Of a stretch of DNA of 64,000 nucleotides, positions 44,213 through 64,000 are shown piece by piece (positions within the stretch are counted from its first letter, which is position 1; every line of letters begins with the position of its first letter). The translations under genes and the position numbers were made by a program. The notes beneath the pieces are model-generated. The model searched no databases. It was not told where the DNA came from and saw nothing but the letters and a program-made list of their open reading frames with translations. Source of the stretch: Acetobacteraceae bacterium (GTDB lineage Bacteria > Pseudomonadota > Alphaproteobacteria > Acetobacterales > Acetobacteraceae); the NCBI GenBank assembly GCA_965213855.1, contig CBDCAA010000002.1, forward strand, positions 8,401 through 72,400. The letters are read 5' to 3'.

Positions 44213-44301
44213 GGCAGGGCCGGCAGTGGAAAGGATTTCTTAAGCTCTATCGGCGAGCATGGCGCGAAGCGGCAGCGGCCGCATCGTCATGAGGTCGATA
44301 G

Positions 44302-46416
44302 ATGCAGAGCCTGCCCCGGTTCCGCCTGCCCGGATTGCGTGGAGACGACCGGGCCGTGCTGAAGGCCGTCCATGGCTCCCAGGCCGTTATCGGGTTCACG
44401 GCAGGGGGCGACATCCTCGGCGCGAACGCCAACTTCCTCGCGACTGTCGGCTACACGGCCGCTGAGCTTCGCGGCCGGCATCACAGCCTGTTCGTGGACC
44501 CGGCCGAACGGTCCAGCCCTGCCTACCAGGCGTTCTGGACGGCGCTCGCCGCCGGCCAGGTGATCCGGTCCGATTTCCGGCGCGTGGCCAAGGGTGGGCG
44601 CGAGATTTGGCTGCACGGCAGCTACAACCCGGTTCGCACCCGCACGGGCCGGGTCGCCAGGGTGGTGACGTTCGCCACCGACGTGACCGAGCAAGTGCTG
44701 CAACGGGCCGACGCCGCCGGCCAGGTCGCTGCCATCGGCAAGTCTAACGCGGTGGTCGAGTTCGCGCTCGACGGCACGATCCTGACGGCGAACGACACCT
44801 TCCTGCATGCACTGGGCTACAGCCTGCCCGAAGTCGTCGGCCGGCCGCACGCGATCTTCATCGAGCCGGCCATGCGTGAGAGCGCCGAATATCGCGCCTT
44901 CTGGGCCGCGCTGAGCCAGGGCGCGTTCCAATCGGGCCAGTTCAAACGCATCCGCAAGGACGGCCGGCCCGTCTGGATCGAGGCGACCTACAACCCGATC
45001 CTCGACGCCGCCGGGCGGGTGTTCAAGGTCGTGAAGTTCGCGACCGACGTCACGGCCGCGCGCTTGCGTAACGCGGACGTCTCGGCCCAGGTGGCGGCGA
45101 TCAACCGGTCGCAGGGCAGCGTCGAGTTCGACCTCGATGGCACGATCCGCACCGCCAACACCCTCTTCCTCGACGCACTCGGCTACACCCTCGATGAGGT
45201 CAAGGGCCGGCGCCACGCCATGTTCCTCGAGCCCGGCGAAGCCGAGAGTGCGGACTACCGCGCGTTCTGGGCCGGGCTGAACCAGGGCCAGTTCCAGGCC
45301 GGGCAGTATCGCCGCTTCGGCAAGGCCGGCCGGGTCGTCTGGATCCAGGCAACTTACAACCCCGTCCTCGACCTCGACGGCAAGCCGTTCAAGGTCGTGA
45401 AGTTCGCCAGCGACGTGACCGAGGCCGTCCGGCAGCGCGACCGGCTGAGCCTGCTCTCGCTCGTGGCCGACGGCACCGACAACAGCGTCGTGATCACATC
45501 GCCGGACGGGCTCATCGAATACGTCAACCCGGGCTTCACGCGGCTGACCGGCTTCTCGATGGCCGAAGCGATCGGCAAGACCCCCGGCAGCCTGTTGCAA
45601 GGCCCGGGCACCGACCCAAACACCGTGGCCGCCATCCGGGAGAACCTGCGCAAGCGGAACCCCTTTTACGAGGAGATCCTGAACTACTCGAAAACTCGGG
45701 AACCCTACTGGATCTCGCTCTCGATCAACCCGATCCTCCGCGCCGATGGCACGCTGGAGCGCTTCATTTCGGTGCAGACGAACATTACCCAGGTCAAGAT
45801 GGATTCCGGGTCGCGGATCGACGCGATCGAACGGTCTAACGTCGTGCTGGAGTGGGATGACCGGAACCGGCTCGTCCGCTTGAACAAGGCTGCCATGGAC
45901 GGTCTGGGCGTCGCCACGCTCGACGCCGCCCAGCGTCTGCCGAGCCTGGCCTACGATGCGCTGTTTCCACCGGGTCAGCAGGAGGCGCTGCGGCGCGGCG
46001 AGACGCTCACCCGGGACATGGCGGTCATGGGCACCACGGCGGCACCGCTTTTCCTTGCCGCAACCGTCCAGCCGCTGCGCCACATCCACGGCGCGCTGCG
46101 CCGAACCGTCCTCTATGCCATCGACGTCTCGGCGAAGCGTGAGGCCGTGCGGCAGACGGAACAGATCATGAGCACCGTGCTCGACCAGATCAACGAGATT
46201 GCCCGAACCATCTCGGGCGTGTCCGGACAGACCAACCTGCTCGCCCTGAACGCGACGATCGAGGCGGCGCGCGCAGGTGACGCCGGCCGGGGCTTCGCGA
46301 TCGTCGCCTCCGAAGTCAAAGCGCTCGCGCAGCGCTCCTCCGGCCTCTCCACCGAGATCGCCGGCCTGGTCCGGGACACACAGAAACAGATCGAACAGCT
46401 GGCTTCGACGATCTAG
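44302..46416 (+). CDS. Soluble multi-PAS methyl-accepting chemotaxis-like protein with a very short signalling hairpin
   Basis: 704 aa with no TM segment. Three tandem ~120-aa PAS repeats (..F..ALGY...E..GR.H..F.....S..Y..FW..L..G.....F.R..K.G...W....YNP..), two further PAS-like regions, and a C-terminal MCP tip ([37 protein letters not shown]). GAGG Shine-Dalgarno 7 nt upstream. Confidence 0.85.
44350..45440 (+). repeat. Three tandem diverged ~366-nt coding repeats (PAS modules) inside the chemoreceptor gene
   Basis: Collinear repeats in the protein, each ending ...[12 protein letters not shown] / ...[12 protein letters not shown] / ...[12 protein letters not shown]. Confidence 0.75.
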
Positions 46417-46455
46417 CCGCACGGCCCGCACCACGGCAGATCGTTACAACTCTGT

Positions 46456-46483
46456 TTGCATCTCCGGCCCGATACCCTATAAG
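46456..46483 (+). promoter_or_regulatory. Sigma-70-like promoter candidate for the OmpA-like gene
   Basis: TTGCAT (46456-46461) - 16 nt - TATAAG (46478-46483), about 28 nt upstream of GTG 46511. Confidence 0.3.
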
Positions 46484-46510
46484 GCCGCATCATCCTGCGG
46501 GAGAACGCCT

Positions 46511-47110
46511 GTGAAGCACCTTGTCCTCGCGGCCGCCACCATCCTCCTCGCGCCCGCGGCATTCGCCCAAGGCTCGCCATCGGTCGACGACCTCATCCGC
46601 GACCTGAAGCCCCACGCAGACCAGCGCACCCGCGGCATCCACGCGATCGCCCCGGCCATGCCGGACGCTCCGGCAACGCCGACCTCCATGCGCTACCCGA
46701 ACCGAGCACGCCCGTCCGCCCCCCCGCAGACCGCGGTGCCGGCCCCGGCCGTGAGCGACCTCGCCTCCACCAGCATGCAGGTCCAGTTCGAGAACGGGTC
46801 GGACCGCCTCACCCCGGCCGCGACGCGCGAGCTGGACAAGCTCGGCCGCGCTTTGTCGAACGCGGAGCTGTCAAGCTACCGCTTCCGTATCGAGGGCCAC
46901 ACCGACGCCGTCGGCAGCCGGGACATGAACCAGATGCTCTCCGAGCGTCGCGCGACGGCCGTGGTCGACTACGTCACCACCCATTATGGCGTGGACCGCT
47001 CGCGGTTGACGGCCATCGGCATGGGCTTCAATCAGATGGCGATACCGACCGCGGAGGGCATTGCCGAGCCCCGCAACCGCCGGGTGCAGATCGTCAACGT
47101 CGGCGCCTGA
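46511..47110 (+). CDS. OmpA-family peptidoglycan-binding protein
   Basis: Track ORF 46277..47110 trimmed to GTG 46511 (GGGAGA Shine-Dalgarno), giving the signal peptide (M)KHLVLAAATILLAPAAFAQ. OmpA_C-like domain (VQFENGSDRLTPAATRELDKLGRAL...RFRIEGHTDAVGSRDMNQMLSERRATAV). Confidence 0.8.
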   Translation: MKHLVLAAATILLAPAAFAQGSPSVDDLIRDLKPHADQRTRGIHAIAPAMPDAPATPTSMRYPNRARPSAPPQTAVPAPAVSDLASTSMQVQFENGSDRLTPAATRELDKLGRALSNAELSSYRFRIEGHTDAVGSRDMNQMLSERRATAVVDYVTTHYGVDRSRLTAIGMGFNQMAIPTAEGIAEPRNRRVQIVNVGA

Positions 47111-47113
47111 CCC

Positions 47114-50100
47114 TCAGAGCGCTGCGGGCCCACGGACCGAGCCGGCGACAGGCGTGCCGGCCTTCGGCGCCGCCGCCTGGCCGACCAGCGCAAACGGCGC
47201 CCAGAAGAACGGGTGGCTGAACTCCGCCGGAAGCCCGTTGCCGGCCCGCTCCAGCATCACGCCCTGCGCCTGCTGCAGCGCCGCCGCGACACCCAGCCCC
47301 GGGTCCGCCCGCATCCGTCGCAGCGTGTCGGCGACGATGAACGTCGCCGCACTGTCGCTCACCTCCCAATGCGTGATCAGCAGCGCCCGCGCGCCGCCGA
47401 AGAAGAAACTGCGCGCCAGCGTCGATAGGCTCTCGCCCCCGCCAAGCGTGCCATTCGGCCCGCCCGAGTTGCACGCCGACAGGATGACCAAGTCCGCATC
47501 GAGTTTGATCTGCGCCAGGTCCGACGCCGTCAGCAGCGCGCCCGACGCGTCCGCCGCCCCCGCCGGCGCGCTCGCCACCAGCGCCGGCTCGTTCTGGCAG
47601 CGCAGCTCCGACGGCAGGATCGCGTGCGTCGCGAAATGCAGCACCCGGTAGTCCGACAGCGCGCGGGTCTCGACCGCCCGTGCCGTGAACGCGCTTCCCA
47701 GCAGCTCGTCGCCCGCCGAGCCGCCCAGCAGCTCCCGCGCCTTGCTCAGCTCGACCGTCGCGGACGGCAGCGGCGGCAGATGCGCCAGCAGCGTCGCGCT
47801 GTCGCCGCAATTTGCCGGGAATGTCCGCCGCGCCTGGGCCAGCGTCACGGGGTGAAAGTCGCCGAACCCGAACCACGGCCGGCTCGCCCGCGACCCGCCG
47901 CTCACCTTGCGCAGCGCCGTGAAGTTGGCCGCCGACGGCACGTGCCCGATCGCCATCCGCCGTGCGAGCCACGGCGCCGCGCCCAGCCGCGCGGGATCGC
48001 CATGCCCGGTCAGCATCACGCCGAACGGCAGCGAGAGCAGGCTTCCGGACGGCGCGACCGTCAGCGCCGTCACCCCGTCCAGCTTCGGCGCGACGTCGCC
48101 GAACACGTCGTCGAACAACGCCTCGGCCGCCTGCGTGTCGAACGCCGGCAAGGTCGGCTCCATCGCGCTCCGGACCCGCAGCACCAGCGGGTCGATCGCC
48201 CGCGCCCCGCCATGGAGGCGCCCGACCGATACCGCACCGTCGCGCAGCAGGAACACGTAGCCGGCCTCATCGGACAGCGTGATCGCTACGAACGCCTCCC
48301 CGGGCCGCAGCGTCGCCAGCACGGTGTCGGCCGACACCGCCTGCTGGATCAGCTGGTCATAGTTCGGCGCCGCTTCCTGCAGCCGCGACTCCTGCGTCGC
48401 CAGGCCGGCGCGCGCCTCCCCCTCCTCCTGGTCCAGCGCCGTCCGCGCCGCGGCCGTGACCGGTGCGCCCGAATCCAGCAGGTCCTGCCGCCTCCGGAGC
48501 ACCCCGGCCACCCGAGCCGCCGCATCCTGCTGCTCCCGGATCGCTTCGCCCAGCTTGGGATTGGCGCTGCTCCCGGCCAGCCGGGCAGAAGCCTGCTGGA
48601 TCTGCTGGCTCGTCGTGCTCCCCTGCACAAGCTGGGAGGCCAGGAACATCTCCCGCCGCAATGCCTCCGCCCGCGCCGGGTCCCGCGTCTCGGCGGCAGC
48701 CCCCGCGAACGAATCGAGGCACCCGCTCATCGGGCCCGGCTGGAATGCGCTCTTGATCTCCTGCAGGATCGCCATGGCATTCCGGCAAACAGGGACCGCC
48801 GCCTCCGCCTGCCCGGCCCGCACCAGCTCGCGCGCCTGCAACAGCAGCACGAGCGCCTGCGGGCGAGACGACGGATAGGCGCGCAAGAACGACCGGCTGC
48901 TGTTCTCGAATGCCGACAGCGCGACCGGCTCGTTGCCTGCCTGCGACGCGCTCACCCCTTCGGCCCGGTCCAGCCGCGCCGTCAGTTCCGGCCGCCCGAG
49001 CCCGGCATCCTGCGCCACGGTCGCCGCCAAATGAAGCATCGCCTCGCTCTCGTCACGCCGCCCCATGCCGCGCAGCACGACGCCCTGATAGCGCCGCGCC
49101 TCGACCAGCCCCGCAACCGCGGCCCGAAGCTGGCGCTCCAGCGGCGTTGCCGTCGCGGCCTCCAGGCTCGCCTCGATACTGTCCCGCGATCGCGGCGGCG
49201 GCCGCAGCGCATCGGCTGGCAGCACCGCCAAATACCCGGCATCGGCCCGCCGCAACAACGCCAGCGCCGCCTCGTCATGGTGCTGGTTGAACTCGTGTAG
49301 GCCCTCGTAGTGCAGCAAGCGCGGCCGCAACGTCACATCGCCCTGCTGCTGCGCCGCCAGCCGCTCGGCGCGCTTGAACAGCGCCTCCGCCTCGAGGAAC
49401 CGCCCCTGATTGGACAGTTGCAGCGCCAGGTGCATCGCGGGGTCAGCCACGTTCGGGTTGTCACGCCCGAACGCCTTCTCCTCCAGCGCGAGCGCCGCGC
49501 CATAGGCGCTCTCCGCCGCGGCCGGATTATCGGCCAGGTTCGCGCGCGCGCCCTGCTGCATCAGCGCGTCGTACTCCCGCACGTCGCCGGTCGCCCGCGC
49601 GGCCGTACCCCGCCGCTCCGCCTGCAGCGCCTGCAGCGCGGTGTTGGTGATCACCGTCCCGCGGGCCCGCCCGGATAGGATCGCGATCGAACGCCCGACC
49701 ACCGGCTCGGCCGACGTCACGCCATCGGCCAGCCACGCCTGCCCGCCGGACAATGCCACCAGCGCCAAATGCGGCCACCCGCCCGCCTTGCCCGTGCACA
49801 CCATCCGCATCGCCGGCATGCCGTCCAGCGTCATCGGCTGCGGCGCCGGACACAGGTAGTTGGCATCCAGCCCGGTGCGCCAGGGCCCGGCCGTGGCCAG
49901 GGCGCCCAGCGTCGCCTCCGTCGCCGCCCCGCCGGCCCGCACCCGCGCGCTCGGCTGCTGCCATGTCCCGCAATAGACCCGCGCCCCGGCCGTCCGCCCC
50001 GCCGCCTGCACGCACGCCTCGCCGACCTGGTTGCTTCCCAGCTCGACCGAGTCGGGCGACGCGCCACCTGCCGCGCCGGACACATACGCCTCAGGCGGCG

Positions 50101-50155
50101 GCGCCGTGCACCCCGCCAGCAGCAGCGCCCCGACCAGGCAGGCGCGCATTGTCAT
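47114..50155 (-). CDS. Exported TPR-like/CHAT-domain (caspase-fold protease) lipoprotein
   Basis: 1013 aa. Lipobox MTMRACLVGALLLAG|C (Cys16). Cys-containing N-terminal domain, long helical repeat region, and a C-terminal CHAT domain with both dyad contexts (YRVLHFATHA, nt about 47625-47645; DLVILSACNSGG, nt about 47463-47489). Its ATG 50155 overlaps the tpsA TGA (ATGA). Confidence 0.85.
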   Translation of the reverse strand: MTMRACLVGALLLAGCTAPPPEAYVSGAAGGASPDSVELGSNQVGEACVQAAGRTAGARVYCGTWQQPSARVRAGGAATEATLGALATAGPWRTGLDANYLCPAPQPMTLDGMPAMRMVCTGKAGGWPHLALVALSGGQAWLADGVTSAEPVVGRSIAILSGRARGTVITNTALQALQAERRGTAARATGDVREYDALMQQGARANLADNPAAAESAYGAALALEEKAFGRDNPNVADPAMHLALQLSNQGRFLEAEALFKRAERLAAQQQGDVTLRPRLLHYEGLHEFNQHHDEAALALLRRADAGYLAVLPADALRPPPRSRDSIEASLEAATATPLERQLRAAVAGLVEARRYQGVVLRGMGRRDESEAMLHLAATVAQDAGLGRPELTARLDRAEGVSASQAGNEPVALSAFENSSRSFLRAYPSSRPQALVLLLQARELVRAGQAEAAVPVCRNAMAILQEIKSAFQPGPMSGCLDSFAGAAAETRDPARAEALRREMFLASQLVQGSTTSQQIQQASARLAGSSANPKLGEAIREQQDAAARVAGVLRRRQDLLDSGAPVTAAARTALDQEEGEARAGLATQESRLQEAAPNYDQLIQQAVSADTVLATLRPGEAFVAITLSDEAGYVFLLRDGAVSVGRLHGGARAIDPLVLRVRSAMEPTLPAFDTQAAEALFDDVFGDVAPKLDGVTALTVAPSGSLLSLPFGVMLTGHGDPARLGAAPWLARRMAIGHVPSAANFTALRKVSGGSRASRPWFGFGDFHPVTLAQARRTFPANCGDSATLLAHLPPLPSATVELSKARELLGGSAGDELLGSAFTARAVETRALSDYRVLHFATHAILPSELRCQNEPALVASAPAGAADASGALLTASDLAQIKLDADLVILSACNSGGPNGTLGGGESLSTLARSFFFGGARALLITHWEVSDSAATFIVADTLRRMRADPGLGVAAALQQAQGVMLERAGNGLPAEFSHPFFWAPFALVGQAAAPKAGTPVAGSVRGPAAL

Positions 50156-53100
50156 AGCCCCTGCTCCGTGATGTTCGGGACCAGCAGCGCGCCGTCATCC
50201 TCCTGCTCGCGGAAGAACCCGAGGCTCAGCTCCTTCAACGGATTGCCGATCGGCAACGCCTGGGGCCGCAGCACGACGCAGTTTACGCTCGCCAGCGCGC
50301 AGGAGTTGATCTCGTAACGCGGGTTCGGGGCCGGCGACACGGCCGAAAGCCCTGCAGCGCCGGTCCCCGACTGGCCCGCCACCGTCCCGCTTAGCCGGAT
50401 CCCCCCCGCGCCCGGCCCGGTGCCGGTGTAGAGCGCGAACAGGTTCCGCACCGTGATCTGGCCCGAGGCCGACCCGGCGCCAACATCCACGATCAGGTTC
50501 CCGGCCGGCACGAAGAGGTTGCCCAGCACGATCTGCCCGGCCCCGCTCGTCAGGTCGATCCGCACCGTCGCATTCGCATAGCCGGCCAGCGGCCTGATCG
50601 ACGCCGTCGGCGATTGCACCAGGCTTGACGTCGCTTCGAAGTAACCGCCCGGCGCGCCACTCCCGGCTGTCGGCAACGCCGCCGCCTTCACCCCGCTCGG
50701 CTGCACCACCCCGCCCAGGCTCAACGCGCCGCCCGGCAGCGCGATGCCGTCCGCGATCACCGTCAGCAGCGGCGTCGCGACCGTCCCGCCCAGCGTCGCC
50801 GATCGTGCCGGTGCCGCAGCCGGGCCGGATAGCGTCAGCGACCCGCCCGCATTGCTGGTGCTGCCCGCCGCCAACACGACGTCGCCGGCTGCGCGAAGCG
50901 CGATCGTGCCGGCCGCATCCAGCGACCCGGTGCTCGACAACGTGCTCACGCCCGCATCGAGCCCGATCGTCGCCGCCCTCACGCGCCCGCCAACCGAGAT
51001 GCCGTTGGCCGTGACCGACGCCGCCCCACTGGCCGTCACGGTCCCACCCAGCGTCGCGCCCCCGCCGGACACGGACGTGATCCTCCCTCCGGCCAAGGTC
51101 CCGCTCGGTCCGACCGTCAGGCTCGACCCGGTCGACACCTGCAGCGCCGGCGCGCTCACGGTGCCCTCCACGTCCACCGCCGCCGCCGTGATGCCGACCT
51201 GCGTGCCTCCCGTCAGCGTACCCGTCACCAGCGTCGTTCCGGGCCCCGCCGTGGCCGTCAGCACGCCCGCGGCCTGCACCACGCCGCTGATGGTCGTCGC
51301 GGCGCCCGACGCCAAGCTGACGCTCTGCCCGCTTGCGGCGCCCGCGATGGCCAGCGCGCCGTCAGTCGTCACCCGCAACGCCCCGCCCGCCGCTACCCCG
51401 TTCTGGACCGTCAAACCGCGGGTGTCGCTCAGCGCCACCGCGCCGGGCGCGCCGATCGGCCCGGCCTGGTCGAACCCGCCAGCAACGGAGAGGTCCTGCC
51501 CGGCCGACCCGGTCACCGTCCGTGCCGAGGCCCCGCTCACCAACACGCCCTGCCCGGCCGACACGCTCAGCGTCGCCGGCGTCGCGACTCCGGTGCCGCT
51601 CAGGCCGGCCGCAGCCGTCAGCGTCACCGCGCTGCCGGCCTGCAGGTTGCTGAACGACAGCTCCCCTGCCGCTTGCCCCTCCGGATCCGAAGGCGTGCGC
51701 GTGCCGGCCTGGGCCGAAAGCGTCAGCGCGCCCGCGGCGCTATCGTTCGTGGCCACCAGGTTGCGGCTGTCGTTCAGCGCGAGGTCGCCGGTTCTCGTGT
51801 TGAACTGGCCGAGCGTCGCAATCTGGTTGCCCTGCTGCGCCGTCGCCCCCGTCGTCGCCGTCCCAAGTGTCGCCGCCGTGGCCGAACCCGTCAGGACATC
51901 CGCCACGATCGCGCCGCCGCCGGCCTCGCTGATCGCGCCGGACGCCACGACCGTCACCGCGCTGCCCGCCAGCGTCCCGGTGATGGCGATCTGCCCGTTG
52001 GCGCCGGACGTGGTGATCGTCAACGGGCCGCCCGAAACCGCTGCCGTGGTCGCATCCAGCGGATCGCCCGCCGGCCCCGCCCGGACGATCCCTGCCAGCG
52101 TCAGCCCGGCCGCCTGCTGCGTCACCCCGGCGGCACTCACTTGCGCCGTCGGCAGGTCTGCCAGGACCAGGCTCAGCCGCGCCTGGTAGTCGGACACGGT
52201 GAACAGATTGTTCGCTGCCCCCCCGAAGCTCGCGTGCCCCCCCGCCGCCGCGGCGCCGAGCGTGTAGGTCGGTCGCCCATTCGCATCCGTGCCGCTGGCC
52301 GAATACCCGGCGCTCCCCGTCAGGGTCAGCCCGGTCAGCGCACCGCTCGCCGTCGTGTCCCCGGCCGAGTGGAGCTCGATCGTGTCGGCGCCGATGCTGC
52401 CGACCGCCAGCGTGCCGCCATCGAGCCGCACGACCGACGGGCGATAAGCGCCCACCACAGCCGTGTTCGAGGCGGTCGCGGCGGGCGCGTTCAGGTCGCA
52501 GCCCGGGCAGTGCAACGCCAGGTTCAACCCCCCGGCCGCCACCCTTGCGTCCCCGGCGAGCACCGCCGGCGCGAACTGCACGGCATACCCCAACTCGGTC
52601 ACTTGGACCTGGTTCGCCGACAGGGTCCCGCCCAGCCCCGCCCCGCCGCCCGATACGCCGGCCCCGGCCAGGAAGATCGTCCCGACGCCCGCGCCGGACC
52701 CGGCCTCGATCGTGCCGCCGGACTGTCCGACCTGCCCGCCGGCTGTGATGCGGACGGCGCTGCCCGAGGCGATGAGCCCCGCGCTCTGCAGGAAGTCCCC
52801 ACCGGTCGCGATGCCGAGCACGGACCCTGCGGTCAGCACCGCGCTGCTCGCCAGGCTGCCGGACGCGCTCACGCCCAGCGTGTTCCCCGCCGTCAACACC
52901 CCGCTCAGCGTGCCGCCGGTCGCCGTGATCGTCAGGTCGTTGCTCGCGTAGACGTCTCCTCCGCCAAACGCGATCGGCACCGGCGTGTTGCCGGCCGCCG
53001 TCGTCGCCAGCCGGTTCGCATGCAACTGCCCGCCCGTCACCGTCGCGCCACCCGCGATCGCCACGGTGTTGCCGAAGACCTGGCCCCCGGACAGCGTCAG

Positions 53101-56100
53101 CCCGCCGCCGAGCGTGACCAGCGGCGCGTCGACCGTGCCCGCCGTGACCGTCGATCCCAGCGCCGCCTGGATCGCGACCTGGCTCTGCGCGCCGACGGTG
53201 CCGCCGGCCACCGTCACGGCCGGGCCAGCCCCATCGGCCGTCAGCACCACGTTGCCCGACGCGATGACCGGCACAATGCAGGCCCCGATCGCCCCCGTGA
53301 TCGTCACGGTGATCGCGTTCGCCGTGATGCTGGTGTTGTCGCTCGTGACGTTGCCCGTGACCGACAGGGGCGACGCGCCGCTCGGGCCATGGGCCTGCAA
53401 CGTGAACGCGCCCTGCGCCGAGATGACGCCGTTGGCCGGCCCGGTGCCGACCGTGAAGTCGCCCAACGCGGCTACGCCGTTCGTCGTCGCCGCGGCTTCC
53501 AGGAGGCTGACGTCGTAGCGGGTGGCGCTGGTGTCGACGGTCTGCGCGCGGCCCTGCAGGGTCCCGGCCGTGATCGTGCTGCCCGGCCCGCCTGCACCGT
53601 TGAGCGTGATCGCGGCCTGCCCGGCGCTGCCGTCGCGCGCGACCAGCGTCACTGTCTGTGCCCCGGCATTAAGCGCTGCCGCGACGCCGGCATCGCCGAT
53701 CGCGATCGTGCCACCGACCCGGCCCGCACCCTGCACGGTGCCGACGCTGAGCAGGCCGAGCGCGCCGGCGCCGGCCGACACGGTCCCGTGCACCACCAGC
53801 CCGCCTTGGCCGCTATTGGCGTCCGGCGTGTCGGCGATCGCCAGCGCGGCGCCGGCTGCAAACCCGTTGAGGACATCGAAATGGTTTGCGGGCGCCGCGC
53901 CCGGCGCGCTCGCAAGCGTCAGCGGGCCGAAGCTGCCATCGGCGAGGCGGCCCACCAGCCGAACCTCGCCACCTGCCTGTCCCGTCAGGGTTCCGGTCAC
54001 GGCCGGGTTCGCCCCGCCCGCCTGCCGCCCGATCGACAGTCCCGCGGCCGTGTTCTCGGTGATGTCGCCCGTCGCATACAGGCCCAGCGTCGCCGCGAGG
54101 TTCGTGAGCCCGAGCGGTGCATTCAATGCCAAGCTACCCGCCGCATGGGTCAACGTTCCGTCCAGGCTGCCCAGCAGCAGGCTCTGCCGCCCGCCACTGC
54201 CGACGTTCGCCGCCCCGCCGATCGTGCTGATTAGGCCGAGTTGCGACGACACCAGCGAACCCGCACCGGTCTGCGCCGCATCCACGCTCATCGCCAGCCC
54301 GGCCGTCAGCGGCGCGATCGCCACCCGTCCATCCAGCGCCTCCACCCGCGGCGTGGCGCCGAGGATGTTCAGCCGGTCCGTCTGCAGGCTGATCTGGTTG
54401 AACAGCACATCCGTCGCCGCCAGGGCCGAGGGGGCCGGCGCCGGGCTCGGTCCGACCGGCCGGGCGTTGGTGGCGAACGCACCCCCTTGCACCAGCCCGA
54501 ACCGCAGGCTCCCGCTGTGCGCGACGCCGTCGACGGTGATGGCCGGCGCAGTGAGCGCGATGGTGCTCGCCCCCATGCTGGTCGCGGTCTGGGCGCCGCC
54601 GGCCGCCACCAGGTCCACCACGGTCAACGTCCCCCCGGTGGTCAGCGTGACGCTGCCGCCCGCATAATACGGCCCGAGTTGGGCGACGCTGTTGCCCGCG
54701 TTGCCGAGCACGACCGACCCCGCCGTGGCCGGCGCATTCCAGGTCGGCAGCGCGTTCGCGGCGGGGGTGAAGCCATATCCGGCCGTCCCCAGAAGCGTCC
54801 CCGCCGTCACGATGCCCGACGCGGTCTGGGTGGTGTCGCCCACCGAATGCAGCTCGATCACGTCGGCAGCGATCGTCCCGAGCACCAGGCTGTTGCCATC
54901 CACCCGCAGCGTCGCCGGCCGGCCCGTCCCCGGCGTCGCCACCAGCGGATAGGTCGCGGACGCGACGTTCGCGTCGCAGCCCGGGCAATGCAGCGTGATC
55001 GGCTGCAGCGGCCCGACGGCGACGGTCGCCGTCCCCAGCAGCGCGGGCGGCGCGAACGTCAGCGCGACGTTCGGTTCCGACACCTGGATCGTCCCCGCCG
55101 ACAGGACCCCCTGCAGCAACGCCGTGCTGGCGGGCCCGGTGCCAAGCAGCGTGACCGTGCCCGACCCCGCCGCTCCCGACCCGGCCTCGATCGTGCCGGC
55201 CGTCTGCGTCACGTTGCCGCTCGTGCTGATCGTGACGGCCGCGGTCGCCGCGATCGTTCCGGCCGCCTGCGTGAAATCCCCGGCCGTCATTACCGTCAGG
55301 CTCCCGCCCGCCGCCAGCGCCACCAGGCTGGCCGGCGTGCTGCCGAGCGTGAGCGGGCCGGCGGAGTTGATCGTCAGGTTGCCACCGCTCGCGATCGTCC
55401 CGTCCAACGTCGGCGTGCCGACCGTCACGGTAAGAGCGTTGTCGGCATAGACGTCGCCCGAGCCCTGCACGGTCACGGCACCCGGATTCAGAGCATGCGC
55501 CCGCAGGCTGCCACCGCTGACCGTCGTGCCGCCCGCGACCGTGACAGTGCTGCCCAGCACCTGGCCGCCGGCGACCAGCAGCCCGCCGGTGGTGACCCCG
55601 ACCGTCGGCCCGTTCAGCAACCCCGAGATGGTGGTGAGCCCGCTCGACGCCAGCACGACACCGCTCTGCGCCCCGACCGTTCCGCCGATGGCCAGCAGCC
55701 CCGTGTTGTTCAGCGTCACCGTGCCGCCGATGCCGCCCACGGCGCAGGCGCCGATGCCGCCGCTGACCGTCATCGCGTTGGCGGTGATCGTGATCGTCTT
55801 GGCCGCGACCAGCCCCGTGACCCCCAACGACGGGCCCCCCGATCGCACCGTGAAGCCGCCCTGCGCGGACAGTAGCCCGCTCGGCAGCGTCGTGCCGACC
55901 GAGACGTTGCCCAGCGCGGCGACCGCGTTCGACGCGTTCCCGAGCACGACGTCATACGCGGTCGCTGCCGTGTCCGCCGTCGAGGCCCGGGCCGCGAGCG
56001 TGCCGGCGGCGAGGGTGCTCGCGGCCGTCTGCGTGATCGCCGCCGCCGTCGAAACGCCATCGCGCGCGGCCAGCGTCACCGTCTGGTTCGCAGCACTCAC

Positions 56101-59100
56101 CGTCGCCGCGGCCGTCGCCGACCCCAGCGCGATCGTCCCGCCCTGCCGCACCCCGCCCAGCACGGCGCCCACGCTCAGCAGCCCGAGGTCGCCAGCTCCC
56201 GGCGCGATCGTGCCCGTGACGGCCAGCCCACCAAGGCCGGCGCCGGCCACCGCACCGTCCGCGACGCTCAGGCCGTTGGCGGAGAAACCCGCCAGCACGT
56301 CGAAATGATTCGTCGGGACGATCGTGTCGGCGTTGGCCAGGGTCAAGGCGCCGTTGCCGCCCGTCAGCGTCACCGCCCCGGCCGCCTGCCCGGTCAGCGT
56401 GCCCACGATCCTCGGCGCCGCGCCCACGGCCGGGCGCCCGATCGTTAAGCCGCCCGGCGCCGTCTCGTTGATCGCGCCGCTGGAATACAAACCAAGCGTG
56501 CCGGCGACGTTCACAAGGGTCATCGGCGCATTCACCGTCAGGCTCGACGGCGCCCCCGGGAGCGTCCCGTCGAGGCTGCCCAGCCGGAGCGTCTGGGGTC
56601 CCCCGAAGCCGATGCTTGATGCGGTGCCCAGCGTGTTCACCAGCGCGAGCTGCGGCGCGACCACCCATGTCCCGGCCGAGGCCGCTCCATCGACCGAGAC
56701 CGCCGCCCCGGCGGTGAACGGCGCGATCGCGACCACCCCGCCCGCCGCGTTCACCACCGGGGCGGCGCCCGACAGCGTCAGGTGGTCGGTCGCGAGGCCC
56801 ACGGTGCCATAGGCCGTGGCGGTCGCCGCAATCGTCGGCAGCGCGAAGATGCCGGCATTGGCCGGGCGCAGGGCCGTGCTGAACGCGCCGTTCGTCACCG
56901 TCCCGAGCGCGACGAAGCCGGACGCGCCAAGGCCGTCCACCGTCAGCGTCGGCGCCTGCAGGGTGACCGTCTGGTTCGCCCCGGCCACGACCTTGTCCAC
57001 CACCGTCATCGCGGTGTTCGAGGCGACCGACAGGATGCCGCCCGCATAATAGGGGCCGAGCCTGGCGATGCTGTTGGGCGCGATCAGCCCCGCGCCGCCC
57101 GCGCCGGCCGGCGTGTTCCAGGTCGGCAGCGCGAAGGGCTGGATCGTCACCGCATAACCGGCCGTCCCCAAAAGCGTCGCGGCCGTGAACGGCGCGGTCT
57201 GGGTCGTCGAACCGGTCGAATGCAGCTCGAGCGTGCCGGCCGTGAAATTCGACGTGAGGTTCAGCGTGCCGGAGTCTACCCGCACCGCCGCCGCCACCGG
57301 GCCGGCAATTAGGCCGCCGGCGGTCACGCCGATGCCGGGCGACAGGCCATCGCAGGACGGGCAGTGCAGCGTGACGGCCGCGGCCGGCGCGGTCTGGGTG
57401 AACCCGCCCGCCAGGGCGGTGGGACCGAAGCTGACGGCCGCGAATGGCTCGATCACCTGGATGGTCGGCCCAACGAGCGTCCCGCCCAGCGTTACGGCGC
57501 CGGAGCCGACCGAATACAGCGTCACGCCCGCCTGGCTTGCCAGCGTTCCGCCCGACTGCGTGATCGTGCCGCTCGCCGGCACCCCGCCACCGCCGCCGAT
57601 CGCCAGCGACCCGCCGCTCACGATCTGCCCGCCGGTCTGGATGAAGCCGCCCTGTAGAGTGAAGCTGATGTTGCCCGGCGCGAACACGTCCGCACCCGTG
57701 CTGAACACCGGCGTGGCCGACGGCTCCGTCACGCTGACCGACGGCGCGCTGATCACCGACCCCGCCGCGAACCCCGTCGAGACGAGCGACAGCGCGGCCG
57801 GCGAATAGACCGAGCCGCCGGTGAACGAGTAGGTGCCGCCGAGCCCGCCGGTCAGCACCAGCGTCCCGCCGCTCTGCATCACGTTGCCGCCGATGCTGAC
57901 GAGGTTCGCCGCAACCGAACCGCCCGTGAGCGTCAGGCCGTTGTTGATCTGCAGCGTGGCCGTCGTGGACGCCGGGTTGCCCGCCTCCAGGAACCCGGCG
58001 GTCACCGTCGTCCCGGTCGCCCCGTTCACGACCGTCTTGTTCTCGCCGCCCACCACGCCGGCGATCGTCACGTGGCCGGTCGCGTTCAGCGTCACCAGCC
58101 CGGCCGTCACGGGATCGATCGCGCAGGCGCCAACGTTGCCGTTGATCACCAGGTCCGTGGTCGACAGCGTCACGTTGCGCGCCGTCGCGGTATGGCCGGC
58201 CAGCTGCGTCAGCGGCTGGGTGTCGGCGAGCGCCAGGTTGCCCTGCTTGACGGTGAAGTCGCTCAGGTTGCCGATCCCGTTGCCGATGCCGTTCAGGATG
58301 GCGTCGCGGCCGGTCGTGACCGCCGCGTTGGCGTCGCCGACCGTCCCGGTCAGCGTGCCCGCCGTGATCGTCCCGGCGACGGATTGCGTCAGCCCCAGCA
58401 CGCTCGACAGGCTCAGCGTGTTGGCGCCGACGTTCACCGGCCCGGCGAGGTTCAGCGCGCCGGTGACGTCGAAGGTCGCATGTCCGGTCGCGGACGCTGC
58501 GGCGATGCTGGTGAACGTGTTCGCCTTGTCCAGCGTGGTCGGCCCCGCCGTGCTGGTCGTGTCCACGAACCCGGCGTTGATCGTGCCCGTCGATTCCGTG
58601 ATTGTCGCGGCGTTCAGCGTCAGCTTGTTCGCGCTGCCGACGTCCACCGCGCCGGCGATGTCGAGCGCACCCGTGGTGGTGATCGCGCTGTTGCCGGTTC
58701 CGCTGGTCAGGCCGGTGGCCGCGGTCCCGAGTGCGCCGATTGCGTTGCCCGGGTTGTTCAGCGTAATCGACCCGCTCGCGCTGCCGACGAGTTGCCCGGC
58801 GCCCACCGGCGCCGTGGAAGCCTGGTTGACGCTGCCGGTCGTGCGCAATTCGAGCGTGCCGGCGATGCTGAACGGCGACGCGAACGTGATCGCGGTCGCC
58901 GCCGCACCATCGGCGGGCGTCGTGACCCCGTCCGACAAGCTGGCCTGGCCGATCCGCACGCGGGGCGCCGCAAGGGTCGCCGTCGGGTCGATGACCGTCG
59001 TGTTGCCGATCGTCAGCGCTGCGCCGTTCGTCGTCGCCAGGTCGATCCGCTGCCCCGCCGTGACCAAGACGCCCGGCCCGACACCGGCCGTGTTGCCGCT

Positions 59101-60990: not shown

Positions 60991-61052
60991 GCTCGAACCC
61001 ACCCCAAACCATCCGTCCGCCACGGCTCGTCCGCGTTCAGAACGATACCGTA

Positions 61053-62837
61053 TCAGAAACGCGTGAGCACGCGCCAGTAGGCCGCTTGCGCCCGCAGCGC
61101 CAACACCCCCTGGTTCGAGGGACCCTCCGGGTTCCGCGTCACCCGCCCTACCCCCTCGACCTCGAACGCGACGTTCGGCCCCAACTGCGCCCGAACGCCG
61201 CCGCCGAACGAGCGCAGCCGCCGGTTCGGGTCGGCACGCTGGTTCTCCCAGGTCTCGCCCCAGTCGTGGAACAGGTAGAATTGCGGGCTGACGGTCCCGC
61301 TCACCCCGAACGCATCGACGTTGAAGCTCGTGTTCAACTGCAGCTCGACGGACGCGGTCAGCGCGTTGTCCCCCGTCACCTCGCCCGCGTAGTAGCCGCG
61401 GTTGTAGCGGATGCCGCCCAGGAAGAACTTCTCCGACGGCGGCAGCACGCTGTTGCTCACCTGCCCGGCTACCAGCCCGAACAGCACCACCGAACCGTCC
61501 GTCCACGGGTGGAATAGCGTCTGGCTGCGCGTCAGCTCGGCGTTGAACTTGAAGAAATCCGTCTTTTCTCCGGCGCGCCCGGCCTGCGGGTCGCCGTTCT
61601 GCGTCGCCCCCAGCCCCGACACTCCTTGCGACAGCCGGAACGACGCGTTGTTAATCCCGGTCCGGTCGTCGCCGAACACCACGTCCTGCAGCGCGTAGTC
61701 CGCGCCGGCGCGCAACACGCGCAGGCTGTCGAAGCTCGCCCGCACCGCCGTCGCCGCGCCGGCCGCGTTGGGCGGCCCGCTATCCGTGCGGATGTCGCTC
61801 TCGAGCGCATCGAGCGTGCCCACCGCGATCAGCGTCTGCTGCCGGCTGCGGATGATCGGATAGCTCGCCTGCGCCCCGAACACACGGGTCCGCCCGTCAT
61901 AGCCCAGCACGCGCAGGTTGCCCGACGGCTCGGTCCCCCCCTCGCCGGCATAGATCCGCACCTTGACGCCCGAGCTGCCGACGAAGAACTCGCTTGCCGC
62001 CTGCCCGAACGTCTGCGTGTTGTTGAAGCTGTGCAGGATGCTCAGCTCCGTCCGCTCGCCGAACTGCGTGAAGCTGTTGAACCCGGCGATCGCCAGCAAC
62101 TGCTCCGGCCCGGTCTGCCGGAACGCCCGGTTGTCGGCCGTCAGCAGCCCGTCCACCGCCTTGCGGCTGACCTGCGCGACCAGCGTCACCGCCGCCGGGT
62201 CATCGCCAGGCCGCAGCACGGAGCGCAGCGTGACGCCGGGAACGTCGTTGGCCAGCAGCAGGTAGCGCTCCAGCGTCGCGATCCGGATCGGCCGCTCCTC
62301 GGTCAGCCGGTTCAGGAAGCGCAGCACCTGCGTGCCGGCCGGCCCGATGTCGCCGTCCAGCTTGACGTCGGCGATATAGCCCTCGACCACGGTGAACCGC
62401 AGGTGCCCGCCCGCGTCCAGCGCCGACGACACCGTCGTGAGCAGGTAGCCATCCCCCCGGTAGCGCGCCAGCAGCGCCTGCCGCGCCTGCTCGACGCGCG
62501 ACAGCGGGACCGCCGCGCCGGTCAGCCCCGCGGTCGCTGCAGCCAGCTCGCCCGGCGGATACACGCTGGCCCCGGTCACGCTCACGCTGCCGATCCGCGC
62601 CGTCTGGCCCGGCGCGAACGACGCCGCGGGCGGCGGCGCCGGCTGTTGCAGCCCGGGCGCGGTCGTCGGCGGGCTGGGCTGCCGGTCGCGATCGATCGGC
62701 GAGCCCTGCGGAACGAGCACGGCCGGCAGCAGCCCACCGCCCTGACCGGGCAGAATGACCTGGGCAGACGCTGTCGAGGACAGCAGCAAGGCGGCTGGGA
62801 ATAGTATTGGCGCAGACCACGGGAGAAATTTCAACAT
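61053..62837 (-). CDS. TpsB outer-membrane transporter (ShlB/FhaC/HecB family, POTRA + beta-barrel)
   Basis: 594 aa. Signal peptide MLKFLPWSAPILFPAALLLSSTASAQ, Pro-rich linker, POTRA-like region (IGSVSVTGASVYPPGEL...RFTVVEGYIADVKLDG), barrel ending ...AYWRVLTRF (terminal aromatic). 62 nt upstream of tpsA. Confidence 0.88.
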   Translation of the reverse strand: MLKFLPWSAPILFPAALLLSSTASAQVILPGQGGGLLPAVLVPQGSPIDRDRQPSPPTTAPGLQQPAPPPAASFAPGQTARIGSVSVTGASVYPPGELAAATAGLTGAAVPLSRVEQARQALLARYRGDGYLLTTVSSALDAGGHLRFTVVEGYIADVKLDGDIGPAGTQVLRFLNRLTEERPIRIATLERYLLLANDVPGVTLRSVLRPGDDPAAVTLVAQVSRKAVDGLLTADNRAFRQTGPEQLLAIAGFNSFTQFGERTELSILHSFNNTQTFGQAASEFFVGSSGVKVRIYAGEGGTEPSGNLRVLGYDGRTRVFGAQASYPIIRSRQQTLIAVGTLDALESDIRTDSGPPNAAGAATAVRASFDSLRVLRAGADYALQDVVFGDDRTGINNASFRLSQGVSGLGATQNGDPQAGRAGEKTDFFKFNAELTRSQTLFHPWTDGSVVLFGLVAGQVSNSVLPPSEKFFLGGIRYNRGYYAGEVTGDNALTASVELQLNTSFNVDAFGVSGTVSPQFYLFHDWGETWENQRADPNRRLRSFGGGVRAQLGPNVAFEVEGVGRVTRNPEGPSNQGVLALRAQAAYWRVLTRF

Positions 62838-63088
62838 GGCGCCTTAACTGTCACTTGACCGGAACGTATTGGACCCTGGCCGGCCTCGTCAACTAGCGCA
62901 ACGATCTTTCGGCCACGGCGCTGCCCTGCGGCCACACCCGGCCGGATCGGCCCGGATCGCCCCGCCGATCGGGCTGTTCAGGGCGAAGTCGGCAGCATAG
63001 TGTAACGGTCGACGAACAAGGACCGGAAGGCGGCGATGGCCCACCAAGACGCGCAGGGCTGGGCAAGACCGGCCGGAGGCGGGGCCGG

Positions 63089-64000
63089 TTGATCGACAAG
63101 CTCGGCAAATACCAGATCCGCGGCGTGCTCGGCCGCGGCGCCATGGGCACGGTGTACGAGGCGTGGGACCCGCAGATCGCGCGCCGCGTCGCGATCAAGA
63201 CCGTCCGCCTGCCCGATAGCGCCGACAGCGAGGAGCGCGAGCTGCTCGGCCGCTTCCAGCAGGAGGCGCAGGCCGCGGGGCGCCTGCACCATCCCAATAT
63301 CGTCGGCGTGTTCGACTACGCCGAGACCGACGAGCTTGCCTACATCGTCATGGAGTTCGTCGCCGGCCGCACCCTGAAGGCCAATCTCGAGGAGGGCCGC
63401 ACGATCGAGCTGGCCGAAGCCGGGCGCCTCATGGATGGCCTGCTCACCGGCCTCGCCTACAGCCACGGCCACGACGTCATCCACCGCGACATCAAGCCCG
63501 CCAACATCATCGTCACCGCCGACGGGACGGTGAAGATCGCTGACTTCGGCATCGCCCGCATCGGCGGCAGCGGCATGACCGTCGCCGGGTCCATCATGGG
63601 CACGCCGGCCTACATGTCGCCCGAGCAGTTCAAGGGAACCACCGTCGACGGCCGCTCGGACATCTATTCGGCCGGTGTCGTGCTGTTCCTGCTGCTCACC
63701 GGCCGCCGCCCCTTTGACGGCAGCATGGCGACCATCATGCAGGCGGTGCTGAACGACGCGGCGCCCCCGCTTGCAACCCTGTCGCCCACGCTGCCGCCCG
63801 GCCTGCAGTCCGTCGTCACGCGCGCGATGGCCCGCGCACCGGACGACCGCTTTCAGGACGCGGAAACGTTCCGCCAAGCCCTGCGCGCCGCCCTGAGTGG
63901 CGCGCTTGGCGGCACCCTGGGCGGCACCCTGGGCGGCACCCTGGGCGGCGATCTGGGCGGCGACTTGGGCGGCGACCGACCCATCCCGGCCATCGGCTCG
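63089..64000 (+). CDS. Hanks-type Ser/Thr protein kinase, N-terminal 304 codons (runs off the right window edge)
   Basis: My own translation: (TTG 63089, GGAGG 9 nt upstream) LIDKLGKYQIRGVLGRGAMGTVYEAWDPQIARRVAIKTV...VIHRDIKPANIIV...KIADFGIAR...GTPAYMSPEQ. All core kinase motifs are present. There is no in-window stop, so it is absent from the ORF track; listed ORF 62978..63877(-) is its shadow. The start codon is inferred. Confidence 0.85.
   Translation, partial: MIDKLGKYQIRGVLGRGAMGTVYEAWDPQIARRVAIKTVRLPDSADSEERELLGRFQQEAQAAGRLHHPNIVGVFDYAETDELAYIVMEFVAGRTLKANLEEGRTIELAEAGRLMDGLLTGLAYSHGHDVIHRDIKPANIIVTADGTVKIADFGIARIGGSGMTVAGSIMGTPAYMSPEQFKGTTVDGRSDIYSAGVVLFLLLTGRRPFDGSMATIMQAVLNDAAPPLATLSPTLPPGLQSVVTRAMARAPDDRFQDAETFRQALRAALSGALGGTLGGTLGGTLGGDLGGDLGGDRPIPAIGS
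63905..63976 (+). repeat. Six tandem 12-nt in-frame repeats (LGGT x3, LGGD x3) in the kinase linker
   Basis: cttggcggcacc ctgggcggcacc ctgggcggcacc ctgggcggcgat ctgggcggcgac ttgggcggcgac, read directly. Confidence 0.9.

Follow-up and report, generated by a model that had tools for sequence, protein, structure and literature searches.

A predicted TPR-CHAT lipoprotein hard-wired to a two-partner secretion pair in Acetobacteraceae, with a putative role in TpsA processing

Introduction

The CHAT proteases, which have a caspase fold, have been described in the cytoplasm, with separase and craspase as examples, and since 2024 also in one periplasmic sensor, DdvA. Craspase and separase are cytoplasmic or nuclear proteins that are activated by RNA-bound Cas7-11 or by the loss of securin, respectively. 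We are aware of no signal peptide, conserved Cys pairs or secretion link in either of them, nor of a substrate for any extracytoplasmic CHAT protease. Here we analyze a CHAT protein gene from an Acetobacteraceae bacterium, found in a stretch of 64,000 nucleotides (assembly GCA_965213855.1, contig CBDCAA010000002.1, positions 8,401 to 72,400; hereafter the window), that is strictly coupled to an upstream two-partner secretion (TPS) pair, tpsB and tpsA. Its product combines conserved export and lipobox signals with a family-specific N-terminal domain, a helical region resembling tetratricopeptide repeats (TPR), a CHAT domain with an invariant His-Cys dyad, and a set of invariant Cys residues. 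An original prediction, made by a model from the DNA sequence alone, had proposed that this product is an envelope-resident, caspase-like lipoprotein whose TPR part could bind the repetitive exoprotein.

In type Vb (two-partner) secretion, the exported TpsA protein leaves the periplasm with its C-terminus last. One example of proteolysis at this end is the Bordetella FhaB/FhaC system, in which the periplasmic C-terminal region of a giant TpsA protein is removed by the dedicated envelope proteases SphB1, DegP and CtpA. These are serine proteases encoded outside the fhaBC operon, and SphB1 is itself a lipoprotein as well as a surface autotransporter. In Pseudomonas aeruginosa, the TpsA adhesin CdrA is released by the periplasmic Cys protease LapG, which acts at the adhesin's C-terminal end (PMC4694147). 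The periplasmic CHAT protein DdvA from Myxococcus xanthus (PDB 8ROT/8RW5) is a TPR-CHAT anti-sigma factor of the separase/craspase type with a dyad formed by H862 and C907 (PMC11506125). Our literature search returned no paper joining the CHAT domain with two-partner secretion, (filamentous) haemagglutinin or lipoproteins, and nothing relevant linking CHAT with CHASE2, while the search for periplasmic TPR-CHAT proteins returned the DdvA paper alone. An envelope CHAT protein and the proteolysis of TpsA are both already known, and the undescribed part is the hard wiring of an exported TPR-CHAT protein to a TPS pair. We give about an even chance to the functional prediction that the window encodes a type Vb system with its own dedicated caspase-fold lipoprotein.

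Results

The CHAT gene is coupled to tpsA

The genes tpsB, tpsA and CHAT follow one another in this order on the same strand (Table 1), and the first two have the features of a type Vb (two-partner) system. The whole genome contains one CHAT protein and one TPS-domain protein, both encoded in this operon. A word-index search with the CHAT protein retrieved over 1200 relatives. Of these, the 120 best are nearly all full length (about 1000-1040 residues) and share 50-65% identity with it; the named members among these 120 are Acetobacteraceae, and the database names, where given, are "CHAT domain-containing" or "CHAT domain-containing tetratricopeptide repeat" protein. We compared 82 related loci, drawn from one-genome-per-species collections; here and below, loci are identified, where needed, by handles beginning with L. 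At 60 of the 70 testable loci, strict tblastn detects a TpsA C-terminus directly upstream of the CHAT gene, and nine of the remaining ten show TpsA by other evidence, leaving a single locus (L078) where none was detected. The spacing is tight, with a gap of 1-3 nt between the tpsA stop and the CHAT start in 32 of 51 loci.

The same association is seen at the level of gene content. Among 201 sampled Acetobacteraceae genomes, 75 (about 37%) carry the CHAT protein and 71 of these 75 are also TPS-positive, the four CHAT-positive, TPS-negative genomes being fragmented assemblies; a further 28 of the 201 have TPS only. In the two complete genomes sampled from the same genus as the window, we found neither the CHAT protein nor any TPS-domain protein and, because neither was found there, the TPS-CHAT module is, as judged from genome content, accessory. 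In the window genome the whole module (window positions ~44300-64000) sits beside rplK-rpoBC and looks like an accessory island.

Across the class Alphaproteobacteria, 42 of 301 genomes have CHAT relatives at E <= 1e-20. Of 20 of these loci examined, 10 show tpsA and/or tpsB beside the CHAT gene, and in other alphaproteobacterial families TPS genes flank CHAT relatives with an identity of 27-38%.

The CHAT protein carries a conserved lipoprotein export signal

The first 20 residues of the CHAT protein, MTMRACLVGALLLAGCTAPP, were examined with a PROSITE PS51257-type rule run as a regular expression. The PROSITE rule combines the lipobox pattern [LVI][ASTVI][GAS]C with an uncharged h-region and a Lys or Arg among the first seven residues; as run here, it called for six residues without D, E, R or K before the box, a Cys at position 15-35 and an Arg among the first seven residues. 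The N-terminus fits this rule through Arg4, an uncharged hydrophobic core and the sequence LAGC ending at Cys16, the lipobox that the original prediction had pointed out. The position of this Cys depends on the start codon. The first ATG (50155) overlaps the TGA of the preceding giant open reading frame (ORF), tpsA, in an ATGA, and a second ATG (50149, Met3) begins 2 nt past the tpsA stop. Met3 is the more likely start, since 2 nt is the commonest stop-to-start spacing in the related loci and the N-termini of homologues mostly begin MR.... Which of the two is used makes no difference to the signal peptide and lipobox. With Met3 the lipobox Cys becomes residue 14, just outside the PROSITE window, as it does in many homologues; a Cys at position 14 is typical for real lipoproteins.

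Conservation of this signal extends across the family. Every one of the 118 aligned homologues (50-65% identity) has the lipobox Cys, and in this set position -3 is mostly L, V or M and position -1 is G, A or S. In 73 of the 82 related loci the lipobox Cys is followed by a conserved xPPPxxY motif, and most of the remaining loci are truncated or frameshifted. The residue at +2 is Thr in the window protein and varies among the 118 homologues (A in 40, Q in 27, E in 21, D in 12, T in 9, S in 4, N in 3 and V in 2); we know of no validation of the E. coli Asp rule for +2 sorting in Alphaproteobacteria. Read by this rule, the +2 residue favors neither the inner membrane nor the outer membrane, which the original prediction had thought the probable site of tethering. 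In the AlphaFold2 model described below, residues 12-32 have a predicted local distance difference test (pLDDT) score below 50 and are disordered, as would suit a lipoprotein tether.

A better-supported internal start, which would have removed the lipobox, was not found: residues 17-107 are conserved at the protein level. An internal start was rejected more generally, as the N-terminal 170 residues are conserved in this way, and so was a downstream start at the first internal Met, M108, which lies within a conserved and confidently folded domain. Given the conserved signal peptide and lipobox, the disordered tether and the eight invariant non-catalytic Cys residues presented in the following section, the CHAT protein is almost certainly exported and lipidated. 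Export in particular is, from the sequence evidence, close to demonstrated, and the original proposal of an envelope-resident lipoprotein is upheld to this extent.

The same proposal had named the envelope localization of a CHAT protein as its unusual point, and here our results are less favorable. A periplasmic TPR-CHAT protein, DdvA, has been published and is the best structural match to the window protein, and Sec signal peptides (with a lipobox or of type I) are present in 15 of the 15 callable N-termini among the 20 distant alphaproteobacterial relatives examined. The presence in these distant relatives of signal peptides of both kinds, together with TPS neighbors, indicates that export and the link to TPS are older and broader than the lipid anchor.

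All cysteines outside the signal peptide are invariant

In an alignment of 89 sequences, with a mean column identity of 63% and about 12% of columns invariant overall, all ten Cys residues outside the signal peptide are invariant, Cys6 within the signal peptide being the sole exception. Besides the lipid-bearing C16 and the catalytic C895, this set comprises C48, C62, C102 and C120 in the N-terminal domain, C457 and C479 in two neighboring helices of the helical region, and C783 and C853 in the CHAT domain. The four N-terminal residues correspond to the spaced Cys residues of the original prediction (GEACVQ, VYCGTW, YLCPAP and MVCTGK, respectively), to which C457, C479, C783 and C853 now add four more. 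The even number of invariant non-catalytic Cys residues (eight) is the pattern of a disulfide-bonded periplasmic protein, and suggests an oxidizing, extracytoplasmic location. Candidate disulfides are C48-C62, C102-C120, C457-C479 and C783-C853, a putative pairing drawn solely from the proximity of the secondary-structure elements in the model.

Domain architecture and fold

AlphaFold2, run on the 89-sequence alignment, gave a model of the full protein with a pLDDT of 85.8 and a predicted template modelling (TM) score of 0.84. The model and the sequence searches together bear out the architecture that had been proposed, namely an extra N-terminal domain, a TPR-like helical region and, last, a CHAT core with an intact dyad.

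The N-terminal domain, modelled alone on 70 sequences, reached a pLDDT of 92.6. Its Foldseek matches are all weak (E 4e-3 to 0.1, TM 0.3-0.48) and all PsbP/Mog1/DcrB/LpqN-like; they include PsbP, LpqN, DcrB, MTC28 and EagT6, and several of them (DcrB, LpqN) are themselves envelope lipoproteins. We tentatively assign this domain to the PsbP/Mog1 fold on the basis of the model. A Pfam scan found no family for it, and a profile search of 1.84 billion representative proteins matched 379 clusters (at 50% identity), always at about residues 30-190 of proteins of about 1000 residues or in fragments of these. Because the matches fall exclusively at the N-terminus of such proteins, the domain is, as far as profile searching indicates, specific to the signal/TPR/CHAT architecture. 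The alternative of a widely shared module was rejected, since the profile finds this one architecture and the short matches are fragments. Two family members (L069:3605-6170 and G426:C22:197361-199832) pass from the lipobox directly into the TPR region and have no four-Cys domain. With at least two such members, the N-terminal domain is dispensable for the core architecture.

The helical region is all-helical in the model, with about 22 helices assigned by DSSP over residues 172-615 (about 445 residues). The stretch that had been cited for its TPR-like periodicity corresponds to residues 214-264 and overlaps a single, sub-threshold Pfam TPR_12 match at residues 207-267 (21.2 bits against a cut-off of 30.1). 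The family profile matches the TPRs of kinesin light chain (KLC) with E 1e-19, and Foldseek also matches LGN, KLC and consensus TPR proteins.

The C-terminal domain matches Pfam CHAT (PF12770) at residues 676-993 with E 1.7e-43 and 149.6 bits against a cut-off of 24, covering profile positions 3-289 of 289. The dyad residues lie in VLHFATHA (residues 838-845) and LVILSACNSGG (residues 889-899), which conform to the motifs H.A.H[GA] and LSAC.[ST]. Both H844 and C895 are without exception conserved in 89-118 homologues, and the motif LSAC[ND][TS] is retained in relatives of about 30% identity, so that the domain is predicted from its sequence and model to be catalytically competent. In a Foldseek search of the PDB the first matches are DdvA (8rw5 and 8rot, E 2e-11), followed by craspase TPR-CHAT (8d9g/7y8t) and separase (9hma/7nj1), with E-values from 2e-11 to 1.5e-8 over these top entries, and then TPR proteins. 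Sequence searches were less informative: the CHAT half matched nothing among PDB chains even at E 10, the whole-family profile matched TPR proteins alone among these chains, NCBIfam had no family for the CHAT protein, and no CRISPR or defence model of PADLOC matched.

Several other assignments of the protein were considered and rejected. It has no TPS domain and is not a second TpsB substrate. It differs from a DdvA-type anti-sigma factor in its lipoprotein signal peptide, the absence of a cytoplasmic domain, and its neighbors, tpsA and a gene for an OmpA-like protein. It differs from the type III-E craspase protease (Csx29) in its predicted export, the absence of PADLOC matches and its TPS context.

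TpsA partners share a conserved C-terminal module

An alignment of 45 TpsA tails from the related loci, with ends seen in L001-L083, revealed a conserved C-terminal module directly upstream of the CHAT gene. Its consensus is [YF]R[FLI]N.C-x7-C, after which come an NPL motif and an acidic tail that in most relatives closes with ...D.D.LLPN[IV]S..D[YF]-COOH. The last 300 residues of TpsA are otherwise 26-45% identical among partners, and no Pfam family was found for the last 449 residues of the window TpsA. The original prediction had the TPR part binding the repetitive exoprotein; this module is a candidate docking target that would be more specific than the repetitive TpsA body.

Neighboring genes

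Coordinates of the operon, its features and its neighbors are collected in Table 1.

Table 1. Features of the TPS-CHAT operon and neighboring genes (window coordinates unless a locus handle is given)
Feature	Position	Strand	Basis
Predicted TPR-CHAT lipoprotein gene	47114..50155	-	ORF and translation, 1013 residues from ATG 50155; Pfam CHAT
Predicted signal peptide with lipobox L-A-G-C16	50108..50155 (Cys codon 50108-50110)	-	PS51257-type pattern and homologue conservation
Predicted flexible tether, residues 17-32, xPPPxxY	50060..50107	-	Low pLDDT; motif conserved
Family-specific N-terminal alpha/beta domain, residues 33-171, invariant C48/C62/C102/C120	49643..50059	-	AlphaFold2, profile search
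TPR-like helical superhelix, residues 172-615, invariant C457/C479	48311..49642	-	AlphaFold2/DSSP, profile, Foldseek
CHAT caspase-fold domain, residues 616-993, invariant C783/C853	47177..48310	-	Pfam, Foldseek
Catalytic dyad codons	His844 47624-47626, Cys895 47471-47473	-	
tpsA, giant two-partner-secreted beta-helix protein, about 3612 residues	50152..60990	-	Pfam TPS domain, E 6.8e-30
Conserved TpsA C-terminal module: YxxNxC-x7-C loop (C-x7-C 50278-50301), NPL motif, acidic tail	50155..50379	-	45-tail alignment
tpsB, Omp85-type transporter with POTRA_2 and a ShlB barrel	61053..62837	-	Pfam ShlB 8.3e-13, POTRA_2 1.4e-7
Receptor Ser/Thr kinase, divergent from tpsB	63089..64000, on to ~65290 (L004:1490-3691)	+	Pfam Pkinase 1.5e-50
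OmpA-like peptidoglycan-binding protein with signal peptide, convergent	46511..47110	+	Pfam OmpA 6.4e-19
CHASE2-cyclase genes	L090:5680-7623, L092:6277-8274, L096:11876-13855		

The kinase comprises 733 residues, with (LGGT)3(LGGD)3 repeats, one transmembrane helix at residues 357-377 (by hydropathy) and a Cys-containing periplasmic C-terminal domain of about 220 residues; Pfam found nothing in the C-terminal part. In 39 of 69 related loci, a homologous kinase gene comes directly 3' of the CHAT gene; in the window, L021 and L022 the kinase is divergent from tpsB. This difference in position indicates that the block has been rearranged.

The stop codon of the OmpA-like gene is 3 nt from that of the CHAT gene. 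Its start is probably GTG 46511 rather than the longest-ORF start at 46277, as judged by a GGGAG upstream and the signal peptide that results. In about 28 related loci an OmpA-like homologue is again convergent and located after the kinase.

Genes of a type VI secretion system (T6SS) are also found nearby. The gene tssM follows the kinase just past the right end of the window (L004:5371-8640, minus strand), and in L001 the genes tssB, tssC, tssE, tssF and tssG (L001:13132-20934) include a tssBC pair directly after the CHAT gene. In other alphaproteobacterial families, a CHASE2 adenylate/guanylate cyclase gene takes the place of the Ser/Thr kinase beside the exported CHAT relative in 3 of 10 distant loci.

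Discussion

A proposed dedicated protease for the TpsA C-terminus

The reading we favor, at about even confidence, is that the CHAT lipoprotein is a periplasmic, dedicated protease of the upstream TPS pair that processes the C-terminus of TpsA, its putative substrate. In this model, which extends the sequence evidence by analogy with the removal of CdrA by LapG, the CHAT protein would be exported through Sec, processed by Lgt and LspA, and hung from a membrane into the periplasm by its disordered tether of about 16 residues. Outward from the tether would follow the disulfide-stabilized N-terminal domain, the TPR-like superhelix and the CHAT domain with His844 and Cys895. A disulfide-bonded C-x7-C loop would retain the C-terminus of TpsA at the periplasmic face of TpsB, where the conserved tail could be docked by the TPR superhelix and cut by the CHAT domain at a putative site in this region, with the result that the filament is matured or released. 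The neighboring receptor Ser/Thr kinase would probably control or read out this cleavage.

Certain observations weigh against this reading. The window TpsA ends in ...LLVPNITEQGL-COOH, which departs from the D[YF]-COOH consensus of the module proposed for docking. DdvA, the sole characterized periplasmic TPR-CHAT protein, is a resting sensor with no demonstrated proteolysis (PMC11506125). The neighborhood points in the same direction, as T6SS genes, present in the 10 kb downstream at 17 of 51 related loci, fit a signaling role at least equally, and recurrent genes for signaling enzymes (the kinase in 39 of 69 loci, the CHASE2 cyclase in 3 of 10) would suit signaling at least as well as maturation.

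Alternative explanations

The signaling neighbors are central to an alternative in which the CHAT lipoprotein is a signaling protease that informs the inner membrane about the state of the filament (whether contact, pulling or damage). By cleaving or binding the kinase there at its periplasmic domain, or in other lineages a CHASE2 cyclase, it would switch the neighboring T6SS or another output. The kinase has a single transmembrane helix and a Cys-containing periplasmic domain, it directly follows the CHAT gene or, as in the window, L021 and L022, diverges from tpsB, and CHASE2-cyclase genes take a comparable place beside distant relatives (L090, L092, L096). The placement of T6SS genes (tssM after the kinase here, tssBC after the CHAT gene in L001) could supply an output, and DdvA offers a precedent for a periplasmic TPR-CHAT protein as a signal-sensing module. 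However, the kinase is absent from the flanks in about 40% of loci and the T6SS in about two thirds, whereas TpsA is essentially always there, and the kinase and OmpA-like genes may be part of the T6SS cluster and not of the TPS-CHAT operon. We consider this explanation unlikely, though a serious contender. In the most far-reaching reading, the TpsA filament, the CHAT lipoprotein and the kinase (CHASE2 cyclases elsewhere) would form one surface-to-cytoplasm signaling device. The TpsA tail would be exposed or withdrawn upon an event at the filament, leading the CHAT domain to cut, the kinase to be switched and the adjacent T6SS to be armed. This version is a tentative one that we would put at around one chance in five; if true, it would be a proteolytic contact sensor built on two-partner secretion.

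A second alternative dispenses with cleavage: in the periplasm, the CHAT lipoprotein would hold on to TpsB or to the C-terminus of TpsA as a chaperone, plug or anchor. In its favor are the binding function of TPR arrays, the resting geometry of the dyad in DdvA, whose dyad mutants showed no phenotype under the conditions tested (PMC11506125), and the tight stoichiometric gene coupling, which would also suit a structural partner. Set against this is the invariance of His844, Cys895 and their surrounding motifs in 89-118 homologues, with the Cys motif kept even at about 30% identity. Pseudo-enzymes usually lose their catalytic residues, and a non-proteolytic partner is in our estimation improbable.

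A third possibility, which we consider more doubtful still, is that the protein is a general or defence protease of the envelope, acting in quality control or, like DdvA, as a sensor of phages or competitors, and that its position next to tpsA reflects genomic hitch-hiking. DdvA is the closest solved structure, and the module is patchy (75 of 201 family genomes, with neither gene found in the two same-genus genomes). On the other hand, PADLOC gave no matches, the protein has neither an anti-sigma domain nor a transmembrane helix, and the CHAT gene is linked to tpsA almost universally, at a distance of 1-3 nt, across families. Finally, a cytoplasmic CHAT protein with a miscalled start and an artefactual lipobox has in its favor nothing beyond the cytoplasmic location of most studied CHAT proteins (craspase, separase), and is very improbable given the protein-level conservation of residues 1-170, the invariance of the lipobox Cys and the four N-domain Cys residues, and the placement of the first internal Met (M108) inside a confidently folded domain.

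Cleavage of TpsA by a dedicated CHAT lipoprotein, if true, would mean that a further, new class of protease matures or releases type Vb proteins. The system lends itself to study, since a candidate substrate is at hand in TpsA, encoded 2 nt upstream and ending in a conserved module, and since the operon is present in cultured strains of Acidocella, Acetobacter and Roseomonas. In addition, the kinase, cyclase and T6SS neighbors may reveal a bacterial route by which surface events are reported to the cytoplasm.

Comparison with known systems

The structure most similar to the window protein is DdvA, which shares its extracytoplasmic TPR-CHAT organization, a length of about 900-1000 residues and a His-Cys dyad near the C-terminus (H862/C907 in DdvA, H844/C895 here). 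The overall resemblance is distant, with an identity of about 14% and a low global TM-score (0.23-0.27). DdvA is a single-pass membrane protein whose cytoplasmic zinc anti-sigma domain binds an ECF (extracytoplasmic function) sigma factor, and it regulates CBASS and CRISPR, whereas the window protein is a predicted lipoprotein with no cytoplasmic part and a different N-terminal domain, and is wired to a TPS pair. Craspase TPR-CHAT (Csx29) and separase share with it the TPR-plus-CHAT architecture and the dyad, with Foldseek E-values of 7e-10 to 1e-7.

With respect to function, a near parallel is LapG-LapD/CdrAB, where a periplasmic Cys protease likewise acts on the C-terminus of a TPS filament and is controlled by a membrane signaling protein; the corresponding cleavage here is predicted. 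In contrast to the CHAT lipoprotein, LapG is a small transglutaminase-like (BTLCP) protease that is neither of the caspase fold nor a lipoprotein. Its gene is separate from cdrAB, and cyclic di-GMP controls it via LapD, with no part for a Ser/Thr kinase. In FhaB, the region removed is a long prodomain, unlike the short module of the window TpsA with its C-x7-C loop and acidic tail.

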